From Escherichia phage B9-1: a stretch of 64,000 nucleotides of DNA. The position numbers and the translations under genes were made by a program. The notes under the pieces are model-generated. The model was given only the letters and a program-made list of their open reading frames with translations, was not told the DNA's origin and searched no databases. The stretch lies in sequence record OQ420740.1. One strand, written 5' to 3'. Position 1 is the stretch's first letter, and each line of letters starts with the position of its first letter. Of this stretch, positions 19,945 through 27,865 are shown piece after piece.

Positions 19945-20658
19945 TTAAATATATTCTGTTACATCCTTGAAGCTTGAAGGCTTCATAATCTTACCTTTAC
20001 TATCAAGAAATATGATAACTTTATTTCCGTTGTAGAATTCTTCTTTAGCAACAAAACCTTCATAGCGACCATCAAAGCGTCGCTCAAGATCTTTAATCTC
20101 CAACTCGATGAGTTGTTCAGCAGGCATATCTGCACTGGCACCGTGTGAATATCGCAGATGGTTGACGCGTGCAAACTTGCTGTCATTAGATTTTAGAACC
20201 TTCCGCATCATCCCGCACACATCACCGCGAAGCTGGAACAGTAAAACCGTTGACAGCTCTGCTAAGCGGTAAGCAGACGCTCTTTGCTTAGAGGTATTTT
20301 TCGCAGCGATCAGTGTATCATAAAATTCACCGATCTTAAACTTAAGACCTCGCGGGTTATCAAACAGGTTTGACCACTTTTCATGGTTATCGTTAACAAG
20401 ATAAGCGGCATAACTTGTGACAACGTGAAGATCGCAAGCCTCTTTTAGGAGATGATCTCCACCATCACCTTTCTCCAACTCTTCCAAAACTTCATTAAAC
20501 TCTTCCTCAATGAAACTAAGCTGGAGTTCGAATGGTGTGTATGATTTTTTCACTTTAGCTGCTACACGGTTCCAATTTTCCACCCAGTTGGCAGACCAAA
20601 GGTAGTTTTCAGGTTGAGACAGTTTTTCCAGGTTGTCGATCAGTTTAGTATTCAGCAT
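19945..20658 (-). CDS. hypothetical protein, weak MazG-like signature
   Basis: 237 aa; acidic helix 'EEEFNEVLEELEK...LLKEACDLHVV' reminiscent of MazG-type NTP pyrophosphohydrolases; weak. Confidence 0.3.
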   Translation of the reverse strand: MLNTKLIDNLEKLSQPENYLWSANWVENWNRVAAKVKKSYTPFELQLSFIEEEFNEVLEELEKGDGGDHLLKEACDLHVVTSYAAYLVNDNHEKWSNLFDNPRGLKFKIGEFYDTLIAAKNTSKQRASAYRLAELSTVLLFQLRGDVCGMMRKVLKSNDSKFARVNHLRYSHGASADMPAEQLIELEIKDLERRFDGRYEGFVAKEEFYNGNKVIIFLDSKGKIMKPSSFKDVTEYI

Positions 20659-20672
20659 TAAAAGGCCTCCGC

Positions 20673-21434
20673 TTACAGTTCCATAAAGTTTTCTACGATG
20701 TCAATAAATGTTTTATCAGAGAAAGCGTCAACCGCCCCGTTAAACCAAACTGGGATGCCGCGATCCTCATACTGGTAAATGTCACTACGTGAAATGCCAT
20801 TCTCCCCTAAATGCTGTGAGTCGTATTTGTTAACGATCAGCAGTTTGGTCCCCTTATTACAGGCAGGGAATAGCTCCCAGTTAAAATTGATAACTGTGTT
20901 GGAGCACCCTACAAGGATAACCATATCATTGCTCGTCAGAGAAGTCAACAGGTCATACATGTCTGTATACTTTGGAGCTACTTCTCCGAAGAACACGACA
21001 TTAGGCTTAACCCAAGTATACTTGCTTGCATCTACCTCAGAGTATCCAATGTCTTTAATGACGTTACTCCCTTCATCATCCTCGTAGACTATTTCTGGCA
21101 AATATCCGTGGACATGTAAAATATCTTCATGTTTTACACCAGCACGCTCCAGCAAATCATCTACATTGGTTGTCAGGTTGATCACGCGACCAGACCAGCG
21201 GGAATACCATTCAGCGATCCGGAGATGTGCAAGGTTAGGATCAACACTGCCCAGAGCTACACGCCGTGCATTGTAAAAGTCATGAACCTTATAATAGTTC
21301 TTGGCAAAGGTGTGGATGTTACACACCTCATCGATGCTGAAATTCTCCCACATTGCAGTGCCACCAGATCGGAAAGTTGGGATACCAGATTCAGCGCTCA
21401 AACCAGCACCGGAGATAATGATCAGTCGTCGCAT
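20673..21434 (-). CDS. SIR2-family NAD-dependent protein (sirtuin-like, no zinc ribbon)
   Basis: 253 aa; 'GAGLSAESGIPTFRSGG', 'TTNVDDLLERAG', 'HVHG', 'VVFFGE' in canonical sirtuin order; CxxC zinc module not evident. Confidence 0.8.
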   Translation of the reverse strand: MRRLIIISGAGLSAESGIPTFRSGGTAMWENFSIDEVCNIHTFAKNYYKVHDFYNARRVALGSVDPNLAHLRIAEWYSRWSGRVINLTTNVDDLLERAGVKHEDILHVHGYLPEIVYEDDEGSNVIKDIGYSEVDASKYTWVKPNVVFFGEVAPKYTDMYDLLTSLTSNDMVILVGCSNTVINFNWELFPACNKGTKLLIVNKYDSQHLGENGISRSDIYQYEDRGIPVWFNGAVDAFSDKTFIDIVENFMEL

Positions 21435-21442
21435 AAGTGTCC

Positions 21443-21793
21443 TCAGTAGATGTTTTGTTTAATCTCTATTCCAAACTTTTTAAACGAGTCAGCAGCAAGC
21501 ATGAATTTACGAGCAGCTGATGGGTTAGAAGTATGCACGAAAATCTTCACGTTGTCAACTACAGGAGGCTTACCAAATACAAATTTTTCCTCCAGCATAG
21601 ATAGGCAATCGTACCCTTCAAATACCTCTCCAAGGTCGTTGTCCATGTGCCACTCAGAAACGCGCCTGTAGAGCTTTCCCTTATCGTTAATAAAATCCAT
21701 AAACTCAGAGGAATTCTTTAGCCAAAGAGCATCTGGGAGCCCATAATTTGACGGATCTCTCAAGTCATCCAGCCACACAATCAACTTCTTCAT
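21443..21793 (-). CDS. hypothetical protein
   Basis: 116-aa ORF between SIR2 and RNA ligase; stop overlaps next start. Confidence 0.3.
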   Translation of the reverse strand: MKKLIVWLDDLRDPSNYGLPDALWLKNSSEFMDFINDKGKLYRRVSEWHMDNDLGEVFEGYDCLSMLEEKFVFGKPPVVDNVKIFVHTSNPSAARKFMLAADSFKKFGIEIKQNIY

Positions 21794-22725
21794 TGCATAT
21801 AGTCCTCGTTGTGGAAATAGCAGTCAAGTATCTCACGGCGTTCCTGCTCCAGGAGGCAATTCCACACATCTTCTGTGTAGTTTCTACGAATGAAGTTTAC
21901 CATGCCGTAAAACTCTTCGTCAACACGTTTAAAGATATCATCATCCCAAATCTTCCAAGCTTTACCCCTCATTACGGCCTTCCGTGCCAAATAGTATGGA
22001 GACTTGATCTTCAGCTGAAGATCATAAGGGTAGTAAGGCTTACGAATCATATACCCTTCACCTCTTGTTTCTGCAGCTAATTCTTTTGCATAGCTGAACG
22101 GAATTTCACGCACAGTGTGAGGACGTTTTGCACCAAGGTATTTGGCAATCCCATCTAAAGCTGCTTCTGGTAGCATTATTCCGGAATCATTATATCTGCA
22201 ACCTATCAAATATGCGCCATGATCTTCCTGAACAATATGCGGATCTGAAGGGTGACAAATTTCAAACATGAATGTCATGTTTTCATGGCCCATAACCTTC
22301 TTGATAAGATCTAAATTACCACATTGCTCCTGGATGGTTTCCTTTGCAAGGTTACAATATGGAGAATCAAGAGACCCGGTTGTTGAAAACAATAGTTCAC
22401 CTTTATGAGATGATACCACACCAAGGAATCCGTTCTTTTTCTCTACCGCCGTCACAAGTTTATTGTCAGGCAGGTTGGTGGAGTTTTCTCCCAAATTAAA
22501 CACTTTTGTGAAGGGCCATGCCACAACATTTCCTTCATTACCGACAACAATGCCTCGGCACTCTAGTAAACGCGGAGACAAATGCCATAAATTGTTGTAG
22601 AATACTTTTCTGGCATATTTGTAGATCTTTAATCCAAGATCTGGGTAATATCTGCTGGTTACAAGACCTTTGTCAACCAGGTCGTCTGCATTAAAATACT
22701 TCATCATACATTCCTCATTTGTCAT
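21790..22725 (-). CDS. RNA ligase (Rnl1-like nucleotidyltransferase)
   Basis: 311 aa; motif I 'EKKNGFLG' (compare T4 Rnl1 'KEDGSL'), motif IV-like 'GEGYMIRK', motif V-like 'LKIK'; a separate KxDG DNA ligase exists at 18033-19316. Confidence 0.55.
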   Translation of the reverse strand: MTNEECMMKYFNADDLVDKGLVTSRYYPDLGLKIYKYARKVFYNNLWHLSPRLLECRGIVVGNEGNVVAWPFTKVFNLGENSTNLPDNKLVTAVEKKNGFLGVVSSHKGELLFSTTGSLDSPYCNLAKETIQEQCGNLDLIKKVMGHENMTFMFEICHPSDPHIVQEDHGAYLIGCRYNDSGIMLPEAALDGIAKYLGAKRPHTVREIPFSYAKELAAETRGEGYMIRKPYYPYDLQLKIKSPYYLARKAVMRGKAWKIWDDDIFKRVDEEFYGMVNFIRRNYTEDVWNCLLEQERREILDCYFHNEDYMQ

Positions 22726-22768
22726 TTTGTCCCTTTATTCTGCCACACAAATAACCTGGTGTCAACAC

Positions 22769-22797
22769 TTGAAATTAACAAAACAGTTAGGTATACT
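22769..22797 (+). promoter_or_regulatory. sigma70-like promoter (TTGAAA-N17-TATACT)
   Basis: -35 at 22769-74, 17-nt spacer, -10 at 22792-97, then RBS GGAGAG and ATG 22826. Confidence 0.5.
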
Positions 22798-22825
22798 ATC
22801 ATTAAAATTAAAACGGAGAGTTACT

Positions 22826-23236
22826 ATGTCTAAAATGCTATATATCGTGCGTGGTCTACCAGGGTCTGGCAAATCAACACTGGCAAATGCGCTATCTTTA
22901 GAAGGTCTGTATCCACATTTTGAGAACGATATGTTCTGGTACGACGATGACGGCAATTACAATTGGGATGCAAGTAAAGTAACACTTGCAGCAAAATGGT
23001 GCAAAGATAACGTAGAAGATATGATGCGTATGGGCTACGACCGTATCGTGGTAAGTAATACGTTTACAAAAGAAAAATATGTGCAAGAATATATTGACAT
23101 GGCGATCAGTCATGGATATAGTTATACCGTAATCGTGGTTGAAAACCGCCATGGTAATAAAAGCATTCATGATGTTCCAGACAGGGTTGTGGATCGTATG
23201 GAACGCCAGCTTAAAAACTGCATTAAACTTAAATGA
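22826..23236 (+). CDS. polynucleotide 5'-kinase-like P-loop protein
   Basis: 136 aa from the RBS-supported ATG; 'GLPGSGKST' (T4 Pnkp 'GCPGSGKST'), 'IVVSNTFT' (T4 'VIISDTNL'), 'VPDRVVDRM'. Confidence 0.7.
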   Translation: MSKMLYIVRGLPGSGKSTLANALSLEGLYPHFENDMFWYDDDGNYNWDASKVTLAAKWCKDNVEDMMRMGYDRIVVSNTFTKEKYVQEYIDMAISHGYSYTVIVVENRHGNKSIHDVPDRVVDRMERQLKNCIKLK

Positions 23237-23243
23237 GGAATGT

Positions 23244-23798
23244 ATGAAATACTTTGTAACAAGCGACACACACTTTCTCCACCAGCGGGTAATGGAGTTC
23301 GACTCATGTCAAAAACACAGATCTCAGTATGATCACAATCTTGACAGTATGAATGCGGGAATCATCACCAAGTGGAACTCTGTTGTGTCACCTGCAGACA
23401 CTGTGTTTCACTTGGGGGATATTGCGTGCACTAATGATAAGAATATCAACAAATTGCTTCCAGATGTTCTAAATATGCTGAACGGACATATTATTCTTGT
23501 TCGTGGTAACCATGACACAAGGACGACTGTCAGAATTATGAAAGAGTTCGGTCATGAGGTTGTAGATTATTACGAGCTTCGCCACAACAAGAATTTGATC
23601 TGTATGAGCCATTACCAGTTTGCAAAGTGGAACAGAAAGCCTCACGGATCAGTCCAACTGTTCGGTCATGCTCACGGAACCACACAGCAGTTGTTTGGCA
23701 GGCAGTTTGATGTCGGTTGGGATGTGTGGGGGAGACTCTTACCATTAGAAGAGGCATACCGTATTGCAATGAGTCTTGCTATTGACAGCGGGGAGTAA
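23244..23798 (+). CDS. calcineurin-like metallophosphoesterase
   Basis: 184 aa from ATG 23244; 'VTSDTHF', 'HLGDI', 'VRGNHD', 'GHAHG' metallophosphatase motifs. Confidence 0.75.
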   Translation: MKYFVTSDTHFLHQRVMEFDSCQKHRSQYDHNLDSMNAGIITKWNSVVSPADTVFHLGDIACTNDKNINKLLPDVLNMLNGHIILVRGNHDTRTTVRIMKEFGHEVVDYYELRHNKNLICMSHYQFAKWNRKPHGSVQLFGHAHGTTQQLFGRQFDVGWDVWGRLLPLEEAYRIAMSLAIDSGE

Positions 23799-26302: not shown

Positions 26303-26641
26303 ATGGCGGATACAACTAAAAAGCGTCGCCGTAGAGGCAGACCTCTGAAAGAGGAGTCCAACGCCATTCAGCTAGAGAAGAACATTCTTGATATGAAGGA
26401 ATCTTTTATAGCGATGGTTCCAGAAGCTCACAAAGTTTTAAGAGAGCTGATGTTGGACCCGAAAACCAAACAAAATATTCGTCAAAGCATTGCAGAGTAT
26501 GTTCTTGATAAGGCAGACCGAATGCAGGAAGAATATGATGAGATGTTTGGTGAAGAGGAAGAGGTGGTAGTAGAAGAGGCTGAAAAACCAGCACCTTTTA
26601 TGCCATTTACCACAGAAATACAGCCTGTTGGCAATAGTTAA
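26303..26641 (+). CDS. AT-hook-containing small acidic protein
   Basis: 113 aa from the RBS-supported ATG; N-terminal 'KKRRRRGRPLK' (RGRP AT-hook core) and acidic C-terminus. Confidence 0.4.
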   Translation: MADTTKKRRRRGRPLKEESNAIQLEKNILDMKESFIAMVPEAHKVLRELMLDPKTKQNIRQSIAEYVLDKADRMQEEYDEMFGEEEEVVVEEAEKPAPFMPFTTEIQPVGNS

Positions 26642-26650
26642 AATATTTTC

Positions 26651-26679
26651 TTGACAAACTTTGCTTAACAGTGTAATAT
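26651..26679 (+). promoter_or_regulatory. sigma70 promoter for the tRNA cluster (TTGACA-N17-TAATAT)
   Basis: Consensus -35 and near-consensus -10 about 60 bp upstream of the first tRNA. Confidence 0.55.
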
Positions 26680-26737
26680 TGTAAACATGGTCTCCCACCT
26701 TTTCTGGCGGCTCAGGTGTAAAAGAAAGCCACCCAGT

Positions 26738-26812
26738 GCCCTGTTAGCTTAGTGGATAAAGCAGCGGCCTTCTAAGCCGTTGACACTGGTTCGAGTCCAG
26801 TACGGGGTGCCA
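26738..26812 (+). tRNA. tRNA-Arg (anticodon UCU)
   Basis: Hand-folded cloverleaf: acceptor gccctgt/acggggt, D-stem gctt/aagc, anticodon loop CUUCUAA, T-loop TTCGAGT, encoded CCA. Confidence 0.75.
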
Positions 26813-26816
26813 AATT

Positions 26817-26903
26817 GGGGAGTTATCCCGTAGAGGTAGCGGTGTAGACTGTAAATCTATTGTCATTGCGACTCGGGTGGTTCGACTCCACCACTCCCCA
26901 CCA
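26817..26903 (+). tRNA. tRNA-Tyr (anticodon GUA), long variable arm
   Basis: Acceptor ggggagt/actcccc, anticodon loop CUGUAAA, T-arm ggtgg-TTCGACT-ccacc, encoded CCA, 87 nt. Confidence 0.7.
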
Positions 26904-27017
26904 AATTTATATTTTTAAATGCATAAATCATACAGATAATGACATTGATATTTATCGTCGTTTATACTAGTCACTAACTGCTCGAAAATCAGTGTCATTA
27001 TCAGTGTAATTTATAAA

Positions 27018-27108
27018 GGAGGGTAGGGAGCAATGGTGCTCAAGCGGTCTTGAAAACCGTCCCGTTGAGGATGACTCGATGATGGTTCGATTCCATTACT
27101 CTCCGCCA
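27018..27108 (+). tRNA. tRNA-Ser (anticodon UGA), long variable arm
   Basis: Acceptor ggagggt/actctcc, anticodon loop CUUGAAA, T-arm gatgg-TTCGATT-ccatt, encoded CCA, 91 nt. Confidence 0.7.
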
Positions 27109-27206
27109 CATTGTTGACCTTGTAATTAAGCGAAAGCCGGAAGCAGAACCGGATTATCAAATGTTACAGTCGTCATCGCCGACTAGCCACATGGTCAACA
27201 TATTTC

Positions 27207-27305
27207 GCTAGGTAAGCCCTTTGGCAAGGGCGAGGATTTTTAATCCTGAAAATAGACGAGGTAGTCGTTGAATACATAGGTGGTTCGATTCCATCACCTA
27301 GCACC
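27207..27305 (+). tRNA. atypical tRNA-like element (99 nt), identity unresolved
   Basis: Perfect 7-bp acceptor gctaggt/acctagc, D-arm gccc...gggc and T-arm ggtgg-TTCGATT-ccatc, but about 30 extra nt between anticodon region and T-arm; a possible UUU anticodon loop 'tttttaa' is non-canonical. Confidence 0.35.
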
Positions 27306-27309
27306 TTTT

Positions 27310-27385
27310 GCTGATGTAGCACAATTGGCAGTGCAATTGATTTGTAATCAATAGGTTGCAGGTTCAAGTCCTGCCATCAGCACCA
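27310..27385 (+). tRNA. tRNA-Thr (anticodon UGU)
   Basis: Acceptor gctgatg/catcagc, D-stem gcac/gtgc, anticodon loop UUUGUAA, T-loop TTCAAGT, encoded CCA. Confidence 0.75.
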
Positions 27386-27386
27386 T

Positions 27387-27461
27387 GGCCCTGTAGCTGG
27401 AAGGTTCAAGCAAGCGACTCATAATCGCCAGACGGTGGTTCAATTCCACCCAGGGCCACCA
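27387..27461 (+). tRNA. tRNA-Met (anticodon CAU; initiator, elongator or Ile2 type not distinguishable)
   Basis: Acceptor ggccctg/cagggcc, anticodon loop CUCAUAA, T-arm ggtgg-TTCAATT-ccacc, encoded CCA. Confidence 0.7.
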
Positions 27462-27472
27462 AATAATAAATA

Positions 27473-27549
27473 CTCCGCGTAGCTCAGCTTGGTAGAGCGC
27501 CTGATTTGGGATCAGGAGGTCGAGTGTTCGAATCACTCCGTGGAGACCA
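27473..27549 (+). tRNA. tRNA-Pro (anticodon UGG)
   Basis: Acceptor ctccgcg/cgtggag with C1-G72, D-arm gctc-agcttggta-gagc, anticodon loop UUUGGGA, T-loop TTCGAAT, encoded CCA. Confidence 0.75.
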
Positions 27550-27595
27550 CCTTTAGTTATACTTTAAATATATACACACAAAAGGAACCTTTAAA

Positions 27596-27865
27596 ATGTA
27601 TACACTTAAAATTGTAGAACGTGTAAATCCAACCCATACTGTAGATTTTCGTGAAGATTTCAACCCTCTTGCTGTAAATCTTCGAGAGTCGTATCATGAA
27701 CTAAGCTGCGATGCAGTTGTGGTCTTCTTTGAAGACAACTCTGAAGGGGCAGTAGCTTGTGTTGTTGATAGCGAGCAGAAGTTTTATATTTACAGAGATG
27801 TGGATGCTTACTTGATGAATGAGAATGCGGTTACTGTCAGAATCATCCACCGAGTGCCTCGATAA
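27596..27865 (+). CDS. hypothetical protein
   Basis: 89-aa ORF with RBS AAGGAA. Confidence 0.35.
   Translation: MYTLKIVERVNPTHTVDFREDFNPLAVNLRESYHELSCDAVVVFFEDNSEGAVACVVDSEQKFYIYRDVDAYLMNENAVTVRIIHRVPR

Follow-up and report, generated by a model that had tools for sequence, protein, structure and literature searches.

The transfer RNA (tRNA) cluster of phage rV5 and the tRNA region of phage T4 are the closest described counterparts of the locus considered here, a tRNA cluster at positions 26738-27549 of a 64,000-nucleotide (nt) stretch of Escherichia phage B9-1 (OQ420740.1), which as a whole is called the window below. The rV5 genome paper of 2013 (Kropinski et al., PMC3606486) reports 'six tRNAs', five of them from tRNAscan (Arg AGA, Tyr TAC, Thr ACA, Met ATG and Pro CCA) and the Ser tRNA detected by ARAGORN alone; already makes a codon-usage argument for them, while terming the Met tRNA 'seemingly unwarranted'; lists an identical promoter, TTGACAAACTTTGCTTAACAGTGTAatAT, as 'PtRNA' in Table S4; and includes an RNA ligase and an AAA_33 ATPase in Table S3. 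The T4 region holds eight tRNAs, the stable RNAs rnaC and rnaD, and the homing endonuclease segB. The B9-1 region comes from the same phage group as rV5, Vequintavirus (rV5-like): it is 99.7% identical to Escherichia phages ECP32 and EduardKellenberger, and 113 phage records match it over at least 80% of its length, the matching Vequintavirus being rV5-like myoviruses of about 136 kb. GenBank records of the 99.7%-identical genomes carry annotations for the cluster tRNAs, and the rV5/Vequintavirus cluster (PMC3606486; MZ501061, MN850595) lies at the same locus with 98-99.7% identity and the same six tRNAs, promoter and codon argument. From the rV5 paper and GenBank, therefore, the six-tRNA cluster, its promoter and its codon rationale are already known. 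The present analysis departs from that paper, which gives the CAU anticodon as Met and makes no mention of a seventh gene. We read the locus, with a probability of roughly 0.75, as an rV5-like tRNA operon of seven genes in which a core of Arg, Ile2 and Thr would serve codon supply, Tyr, Ser and the seventh gene would be accessory, and the seventh gene is most likely a Lys-type tRNA or a mimic of one.

Like the T4 region, the B9-1 locus is a compact, presumably co-transcribed cluster with extra tRNA-like RNA, homing-endonuclease invasion (in a relative) and repair enzymes comparable to Rnl1 and Pnkp. The two have five anticodons in common (Arg-UCU, Ile-CAU, Thr-UGU, Ser-UGA and Pro-UGG), with identities from 65% to 85%, highest for Pro (85%) and 74% for Ser. 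The B9-1 cluster has Tyr in place of T4's Gly, Leu and Gln, and its six canonical genes all encode CCA, unlike several T4 tRNAs.

ARAGORN, run on the whole window, calls seven tRNA-type genes, all on the plus strand, between 26738 and 27549. Six of them agree in every coordinate and anticodon with the cloverleaves folded by hand in an earlier note on this DNA: tRNA-Arg (UCU; 26738-26812), tRNA-Tyr (GUA; 26817-26903), tRNA-Ser (UGA; 27018-27108), tRNA-Thr (UGU; 27310-27385), a CAU-anticodon tRNA (27387-27461) and tRNA-Pro (UGG; 27473-27549). The count of six in that note overlooked a seventh tRNA-type gene at 27207-27305, recognized by ARAGORN and Rfam, which it had treated as a gap. All six reported tRNAs form a cloverleaf with a 7-nt anticodon loop and have encoded CCA ends, as had been claimed, and the spacing is tight, the successive spacers being 4, 114, 98, 4, 1 and 11 nt when the seventh gene is counted. 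On the Rfam tRNA model (RF00005, gathering threshold 29 bits) Thr scores 77.1, Arg 67.8, Pro 66.4, the CAU tRNA 60.0 and Tyr a marginal 29.9 bits; Ser, a normal long-arm cloverleaf, falls below the reporting threshold of this model, on which long-arm tRNAs usually score low, and reaches 41.5 bits on the tRNA-Sec model (RF01852, threshold 47 bits). Both Tyr and Ser have a long extra arm, with A73 and G73, respectively. The six-tRNA cluster is real, far beyond chance.

In phage VB-EcoM-WM, tRNA-Pro is broken by a 353-base-pair (bp) insert (L100 1099-1451) coding for a 113-amino-acid HNH endonuclease, in parallel to segB of the T4 tRNA cluster; the insert takes the place of 7 nt in the anticodon-stem region (corresponding to window 27498-27504), so that no intact tRNA-Pro is left there. 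An insert of equal size in phage YP-6 appears in the BLAST table alone.

Codon supply was assessed on 58 non-overlapping open reading frames (ORFs) of at least 100 amino acids, which give 17,261 codons from the window, with 42 annotated genes of E. coli K-12 as the host sample. The four codons, among 61, with the highest phage/host ratios are AGA (12.3-fold), AGG (10.8-fold), AUA (4.75-fold) and ACA (4.3-fold), in that order; CCU (2.9-fold), UCU (2.2-fold) and UCA (2.1-fold) are also over-used, UAC and UAU stand at 1.5-1.6-fold, CCA at 1.3-fold and AAA at 1.14-fold, and AUG is at 0.91-fold. For the six cognate codons the ranks add up to 63 (p about 8e-4, rank-sum test over the 61 codons), and for those of Arg, Ile2 and Thr, a post-hoc grouping, to 8 (p about 8.5e-5). 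The proposal in the earlier note that these tRNAs supply codons rare in the host thus fares best for Arg-UCU, Thr-UGU and the CAU tRNA read as Ile2, less well for Ser-UGA (through UCA) and Pro-UGG (through CCU and CCA), and poorly for Tyr (1.5-fold). Phage V18 has kept precisely Arg, Thr and the CAU tRNA, the three tRNAs common to all relatives, and O157 typing phage 4 has Pro besides these. In both phages a deletion from about 26895 to about 27263-27278 (window positions) removes Tyr, Ser and the seventh gene, so that a 5' portion of Tyr runs on into a 3' portion of the seventh gene; the resulting chimera (L006 1171-1243 in V18; L007 in typing phage 4) has mismatched acceptor halves and scores 35 bits on the covariance model of the seventh-gene family described below. 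Within the genus, variable columns amount to 0% in Arg, 7.9% in Thr and 0% in the CAU tRNA, the range over all six tRNAs being 0-9.9%. Codon supply is a supported explanation of the core set (Arg, Ile2 and Thr); for the accessory set (Tyr, Ser and the seventh gene) its explanatory value is weak or nil. The core tRNAs, together with Pro-UGG, would top up the decoders for AGA/AGG, AUA, ACA and CCU, which this phage (44% G+C) uses 3-12 times as much as E. coli.

The CAU tRNA, called Met in the earlier note, is on sequence grounds best read as tRNA-Ile2, and most likely reads AUA after lysidine modification of C34. Its best matches in 5,412 E. coli genomes are genes annotated tRNA-Ile, with 81.6% identity over the full length; its anticodon stem-loop, AGCGA-CUCAUAA-UCGCC, is identical to that of an aligned E. 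coli tRNA-Ile, with which it also shares the acceptor stem GGCCCUx/xAGGGCC. The acceptor stem of the phage tRNA, GGCCCUG/CAGGGCC, contains C4:G69 and C5:G68, the pairs by which E. coli TilS tells tRNA-Ile2 from tRNA-Met, a discrimination reportedly described by Ikeuchi and colleagues in 2005. GenBank records of the BASEL collection label the gene tRNA-Ile, codon ATA, and the equivalent CAU gene of phage T4 is likewise annotated tRNA-Ile. ARAGORN and several GenBank records do call it Met, as does the rV5 paper, but they do so from the anticodon alone; an elongator or initiator tRNA-Met is improbable for a gene whose best E. coli match is annotated tRNA-Ile, which carries both TilS pairs, and which belongs to a phage that over-uses AUA 4.75-fold while its AUG usage is 0.91 times that of the host. 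The Ile2 reading removes the puzzle of an 'unwarranted' Met tRNA in rV5-like phages, and would make the core of Arg, Ile2 and Thr a textbook match to the most host-discordant phage codons.

The seventh gene (27207-27305, plus strand), a tRNA-shaped RNA ('TLR'), is reported by ARAGORN as 'tRNA-???' and scores 35.5 bits on the Rfam tRNA model against the threshold of 29. It reads GCUAGGU-AA-GCCC-UUUGGCAA-GGGC-G-AGGA-UUUUUAA-UCCU-G-AAAAUA-[GACGA GGUAG UCGUU]-GAAUACAUA-GGUGG-UUCGAUU-CCAUC-ACCUAGC-A-CC|U, that is, a 7-bp acceptor stem, A8, a D arm, a 4-bp anticodon stem flanked by G..G with the loop UU-UUU-AA, a 30-nt extra-arm region with the conserved junctions GAAAAUA and GAAUACAUA, a T arm, A73 and a 3' end CC-U in which CCA is not fully encoded. 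The cloverleaf fold is better than that of 200 of 200 shuffles (z -3.7). In an alignment of 24 distinct family sequences from five named genera and metagenomic relatives, all 480 tested cells are paired; 10 of the 20 pairs have changes on both sides; and the elbow pair 19:56 covaries, being G:C in 16 sequences and U:A in 8. When, as a control, the 3' partners are slid by 1-3 columns, pairing is 34-47%. All 25 versions of the gene keep 7 of 7 acceptor pairs, 4 of 4 anticodon-stem pairs and the invariant flanking G..G. Within Vequintavirus, 5.1% of its columns vary, compared with 17.5-20.4% in the adjoining spacers and the range given above for the six tRNAs, and the stem substitutions found within the genus all keep pairing. 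A family covariance model gives the window copy 107 bits and the members 107-116 bits, whereas ordinary long-arm tRNAs reach at most 26, and it finds no second copy in the window. These patterns indicate that the seventh gene is a functional, structurally constrained RNA and not a pseudogene.

Membership in described RNA families was considered and rejected. The T4 species 1 and 2 RNAs (rnaC and rnaD) show no detectable homology to the seventh gene: the covariance model does not match them, and in T4 reaches only about 24 bits on tRNA-Thr and tRNA-Leu. The tRNA-Sec model gives at best 43.3 bits (in a metagenomic relative, L096) against 47. The seventh gene resembles tRNA-Sec and further long-arm tRNAs of unusual geometry in its long extra arm, in a D arm for which 6 bp and a 4-nt loop can be drawn, and in an anticodon stem abutting the D stem; unlike tRNA-Sec, it has 7/5 rather than 8/5 acceptor/T geometry, A73 or U73 rather than G73 in the family, and in the window the anticodon UUU. 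On the RF01852 test the window copy is not assigned to tRNA-Sec, and homologs of Henunavirus type are the only ones with a UCA anticodon. Scanned permissively with Rfam, 26600-27650 returned models of the tRNA clan only, apart from chance-level YrlA (25 bits against 69), miRNA and plastid models. Long-arm tRNAs of unusual geometry, the allo-tRNAs, were reportedly described by Mukai and colleagues in 2017.

BLAST and motif scans place homologs of the seventh gene in Avunavirus (Av-05), in Seunavirus (PVP-SE1, SSE121, 4MG, NINP13076, FENT2 and others), in Mydovirus (KB57, DP and Ro1), in Henunavirus (the Erwinia phages Hena1 and pEp_SNUABM_01, where the gene is annotated tRNA-sup(tca)) and in metagenomic relatives. 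A first search pattern, CTTTGGCAAGGNCGAGG, returned mostly unrelated coding DNA, which was filtered by hand. GenBank records name the gene tRNA-Lys (AAA), tRNA-OTHER, tRNA-Stop(tta) or 'tRNA-???(atcc)', mark it pseudo, or omit it; outside Vequintavirus and Henunavirus it is almost never annotated. ARAGORN calls no homolog outside Vequintavirus, and the homologs in other genera are not called tRNA by Rfam, with sub-threshold tRNA-Sec scores only. Among 185,579 GTDB bacterial and archaeal species genomes, none contains the conserved 3' motif AATACATAGGNGGTTNGATTCC exactly, and matches in IMG/VR and metagenomes lie on phage contigs of 120-152 kb or on fragments of such contigs; a bacterial origin and prophage copies were rejected on these grounds. 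A literature search covering tRNAs of Vequintavirus, rV5 and Hena1 as well as tRNA-like decoys turned up no account of the gene. The family is thus inconsistently annotated and, as far as that search went, undescribed: a strongly constrained RNA across the subfamily Vequintavirinae that annotation pipelines have missed or named four ways.

The body of the RNA and its two junction motifs are conserved across the family, and the anticodon loop is genus-specific. Vequintavirus has the loop UU-UUU-AA with A73 and CC-U; Avunavirus has UU-UAU-AA with U73 or C73 and ACA; Henunavirus and relatives have (C/U)A-UCA-AA with U73 and CCA; and Seunavirus, Mydovirus and metagenomic relatives have mostly C-CA-UCC-A-G or C-CA-GCC-A-G, of 8 nt (6 if C:G closes), with U73, CCA (CAA in one unverified record), G1:C72 and C2:G71. 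UCC or GCC occurs with U73 in 10 of 12 distinct sequences of this last type, the other two having UCA or UCAA. By E. coli identity rules, UUU with A73 is the lysyl-tRNA synthetase (LysRS) set; UCC or GCC with U73, G1:C72 and C2:G71 is close to the glycyl-tRNA synthetase set; and UCA-A-A is the canonical UGA-reading loop apart from A33 and matches an opal/Cys-like identity. Because anticodon and discriminator change together, they suggest a chargeable scaffold that switches identity. We tentatively propose, as a possibility short of probable, an unrecognized phage tRNA family in which one conserved body (long extra arm, Sec-like D arm, short anticodon stem) has its anticodon and discriminator swapped together between genera, the version in B9-1 being a chargeable, nuclease-resistant tRNA-Lys(UUU) surrogate, or a tRNA-Lys decoy, that would sustain translation when defences of the PrrC, PARIS or Schlafen type cut host tRNA-Lys and complement the nearby Rnl1/kinase cassette.

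Other unusual tRNAs accompany these homologs. In Mydovirus KB57 and DP, the tRNA directly upstream of the homolog (1419-1493 in each; L068 and L070) has a 6-nt loop, ACGAUA, which ARAGORN reports as a 2-base anticodon, and in the PVP-SE1 counterpart (L075 2410-2485) the loop is AAGAUUC, lacking both U33 and a purine at 37; anticodon loops that depart from the canonical form seem frequent in these clusters. Metagenomic relatives (L096 2791-2865; L087 7862-7934) carry a CUA-anticodon tRNA of amber-suppressor type, called 'Pyl' by ARAGORN, plus a homolog of the seventh gene with a UCA loop.

The B9-1 version has LysRS-type features, namely the loop U32 U33 U34 U35 U36 A37 A38 and the discriminator A73, and its anticodon arm equals that of E. 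coli tRNA-Lys (sequence from PMC11464382) at 11 of 17 positions, including 33-40. Position 41, which is A in host tRNA-Lys, is C here (U36AAUC|C41). It lacks the class I tRNA-Lys body, having the 30-nt extra-arm region; its homologs carry other anticodons; and the family model separates it from ordinary tRNAs. The phage uses AAA only 1.14 times as often as the host, so codon demand does not explain a Lys-type gene. The nearest functional precedent is the T5 tRNA-Lys(UUU) that neutralizes PARIS (Burman et al. 2024, PMC11464382; PMC12409363), likewise a phage Lys(UUU)-type RNA whose anticodon stem differs from that of the host near the AriB cut; C41 of the seventh gene is the same base as in T5 'Mut2', and codon demand does not account for the gene. 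The T5 tRNA is otherwise ordinary, is stable and rescues infection, whereas the seventh gene, known here from its sequence, retains U39 and differs in its long extra arm and its anticodon stem of 4 bp. A tRNA-Lys surrogate or decoy is most likely, as the most economical reading of these features: the gene would be an atypical Lys-type tRNA, or a mimic of tRNA-Lys, useful when the host tRNA-Lys is attacked. T4 has annotated tRNA genes without an encoded CCA, and the T4 precedents are that the host can complete CCA on phage tRNAs. If the gene is indeed a chargeable identity-switching tRNA or a tRNA-Lys decoy, it bears on phage escape from tRNA-cleaving immunity.

Three other accounts of the seventh gene have to be set against this one. 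A decaying tRNA pseudogene, or a chance cloverleaf, would agree with the records marked 'pseudo' or 'OTHER', with the incomplete CCA, with the loss of the gene in V18 and typing phage 4 and with the 3' end ACA in Av-05, yet it is very improbable given full pairing in the family alignment, where each helix and the tertiary pair show compensatory changes, a tRNA-like rate of variation beside diverging spacers, stem substitutions that keep pairing, and a fold that beats all shuffles; covariation largely refutes it. It is rather unlikely that the gene is a non-decoding mimic that cannot be charged, whether a decoy or sponge for a nuclease or another enzyme or a stable RNA like T4 species 1. Such a mimic would suit the non-canonical anticodon arm found in all genera (the stem having 4 bp and the loop 7, 8/6 or 5 nt), a family whose best-conserved parts are the body and both junction motifs rather than the loop and which ARAGORN misses outside Vequintavirus, the presence of tRNA-like stable RNAs in the T4 cluster too, and the suggestion in the AriB paper (PMC12409363) that competition by overexpressed viral tRNAs could inhibit AriB. 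A pure mimic would not be expected to show anticodon/discriminator pairs that fit Gly, opal/Cys-like and Lys identity sets in different genera (UCC/GCC with U73 in most Seunavirus/Mydovirus-type sequences, UCA-A-A with U73 and encoded CCA in all of Henunavirus type, UUU with A73 here), nor the canonical U33 and A37 of the B9-1 loop. Finally, a terminator scan flags GCCCTTTGGCAAGGGC followed by GAGGATTTTT at 27216-27240, so that the D-arm hairpin and U-run could form an internal attenuator that lowers read-through into Thr-Ile2-Pro. This is extremely improbable: the U-run is the Lys-like loop and is confined to Vequintavirus, the scan gave 4 terminator-like sites in all against 2.3 expected, and the three best-conserved core tRNAs lie downstream. 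Since the homologs have no U-run, the match is probably incidental.

Some observations count against the reading of the locus as a seven-gene operon with a codon-supply core and a Lys-type accessory gene. The seventh gene departs from canonical tRNA in its anticodon stem, which has 4 Watson-Crick pairs and a G/G juxtaposition instead of 5 pairs, in A8/U14 in place of U8/A14, and in its incomplete CCA; in sister genera the loop of the homologs has 6 or 8 nt, or contains A33, so that any decoding by the family is in question; and it is dispensable in V18 and typing phage 4. For the core, the match between tRNA set and codon usage is a correlation, not proof, and comes from 58 mechanically chosen ORFs and just 42 E. 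coli genes, and for Tyr (1.5-1.6-fold) codon supply is a poor explanation.

The RNA-repair cassette to which the earlier note had linked the cluster is real. Pfam and PHROG identify an ORF with a cyclic-phosphate-processing receiver domain (cREC_REC; 21443-21793, minus strand; PF20274, 53.3 bits against a cutoff of 27) adjoining a T4 Rnl1-family RNA ligase (21790-22725, minus; PF09511 RNA_lig_T4_1, 55.7 bits; PHROG 562, E = 2.7e-66); a polynucleotide-kinase-like P-loop kinase (22670-23236, plus, true start probably near 22830; AAA_33, 39.3 bits; PHROG 505 'polynucleotide kinase', E = 9e-10); and a calcineurin-like metallophosphoesterase (23139-23798, plus, true start probably near 23240; Metallophos_2, 27.5 bits against a cutoff of 27; PHROG 547 'phosphoesterase', E = 5e-52). 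The kinase and phosphoesterase ORFs are divergent from the ligase and cREC_REC ORFs, and the predicted 5'-kinase and phosphoesterase domains lie on separate ORFs. A PDB sequence search matched the metallophosphoesterase to 1xm7 (E = 4.5e-11) and found no match for the ligase or the kinase. The phosphoesterase is calcineurin-like, not of the type of T4's Pnkp phosphatase, whose fold is different. The cREC_REC ORF is preceded by a Sir2-family ORF (20673-21434, minus) and by an ORF (19945-20658, minus) that is Sir2-like in the annotation of relatives and has no Pfam match; Sir2 and cREC_REC make an unusual neighbourhood for a phage RNA-repair module. By analogy with T4, healing and sealing enzymes for cleaved tRNA are plausibly encoded about 3 kb from the cluster, and a functional link between cassette and cluster is plausible.

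In the second idea of the earlier note, the cluster would serve mainly counter-defence, phage copies replacing host tRNAs destroyed by anticodon-arm nucleases in concert with the Rnl1 ligase, kinase and phosphoesterase about 3 kb upstream, an account compatible with codon supply that we hold to be possible but not the leading one. Published systems cleave the counterparts of most cluster members: PARIS AriB cleaves Lys-UUU, Thr-UGU and Asn (PMC12409363); Tyr is depleted by Retron-Eco7 PtuAB, infection being rescued by phage tRNA-Tyr; the tRNAs cut by Ec1ApeA are Pro, Thr, Met and Ser; and those cut by a bacterial Schlafen are Lys, Met and Ile-CAU. The overlap between encoded anticodons and nuclease targets that the earlier note suggested looking for is therefore found, but so many tRNAs are now known targets that it discriminates little and is weak evidence. 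In favour of counter-defence, Tyr and the Lys-like seventh gene are unexplained by codon usage, the repair cassette is present, and the seventh gene has C41, the change from A41 to C in E. coli tRNA-Lys being one that 'substantially inhibits' AriB. Against it, the core tRNAs fit the codons with the strongest over-use almost perfectly, a match not predicted by counter-defence; sensitivity of Vequintavirus to Ec2ApeA has been reported; the cassette is tied to the cluster by analogy; and the anticodon arm of the phage tRNA-Thr, AUUGA-UUUGUAA-UCAAU, retains the host-like AriB site U36AAUC|A41 (motif from PMC12409363) as well as U16, with no sign of AriB escape. Because tRNA-Thr keeps this cut site, the pair of tRNA-Thr and seventh gene is not simply a PARIS-escape module, and the best anti-nuclease candidate in the cluster is the Lys-like seventh gene. 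The counter-defence link is plausible, by analogy, although the host-like tRNA-Thr weakens it. Core and accessory genes could represent a division of labour between codon supply and possible counter-defence.

The promoter described in the earlier note, TTGACA-N17-TAATAT, is present upstream of tRNA-Arg (26651-26679, plus strand); it is of sigma-70 type, has 10 of 12 consensus matches and can alternatively be read as an extended -10, TGTAATATT. Its hexamers are unchanged in 7 distinct Vequintavirus relatives. The claim that it is the cluster's own has to be relaxed, as such sites are not unique to the cluster: 11 were found nearby against 5.9 +/- 2.6 expected. The putative transcribed leader between promoter and tRNA-Arg (26681-26737, plus) varies in only 3.5% of columns within the genus, far better conserved than the internal spacers (17-20%), and has no significant fold relative to shuffles (z +0.87). 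Host RNA polymerase would transcribe the cluster from this consensus promoter as a polycistronic tRNA operon, and the host tRNA-processing machinery would cut the transcript into single tRNAs, as the 1-11-nt spacers and encoded CCA ends suggest.

Two long spacers interrupt the cluster. The one between Tyr and Ser (26904-27017, plus; fold z -4.6; 17.5% of columns vary) contains an inverted repeat of about 15 bp, GATAATGACATTGAT ... ATCAGTGTCATTATC, around a promoter-like site, ATGACA-18-TATACT (26939-26968); in one relative an A-to-G substitution leaves the pairing intact as G:U. The one between Ser and the seventh gene (27109-27206, plus; fold z -2.6; 20.4% of columns vary) is closed by GUUGACC/GGUCAAC and is probably a mere spacer. 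The folds of both beat shuffles, but as 17-20% of their columns diverge within the genus they were counted as spacers and not as additional RNA genes.

Directly upstream of the promoter, a 112-amino-acid protein (26303-26641, plus strand) belongs to phrog_3330, without a Pfam family; its GRPLKEESNAIQLEKN motif is invariant, its tail is acidic and PFTTEI is conserved at its C terminus. Its AlphaFold model has three helices with a predicted local distance difference test score (pLDDT) of 68 and is too generic for structure search. In Seunavirus and Mydovirus a homologue sits inside the tRNA cluster (PVP-SE1 gp081, FENT2). Among the database matches to the region, 18 records (MG065644-MG065682) are titled 'Campylobacter phage', most with C. 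jejuni as host; they are 96-97% identical to the E. coli Vequintavirus region, and their host labels look doubtful.

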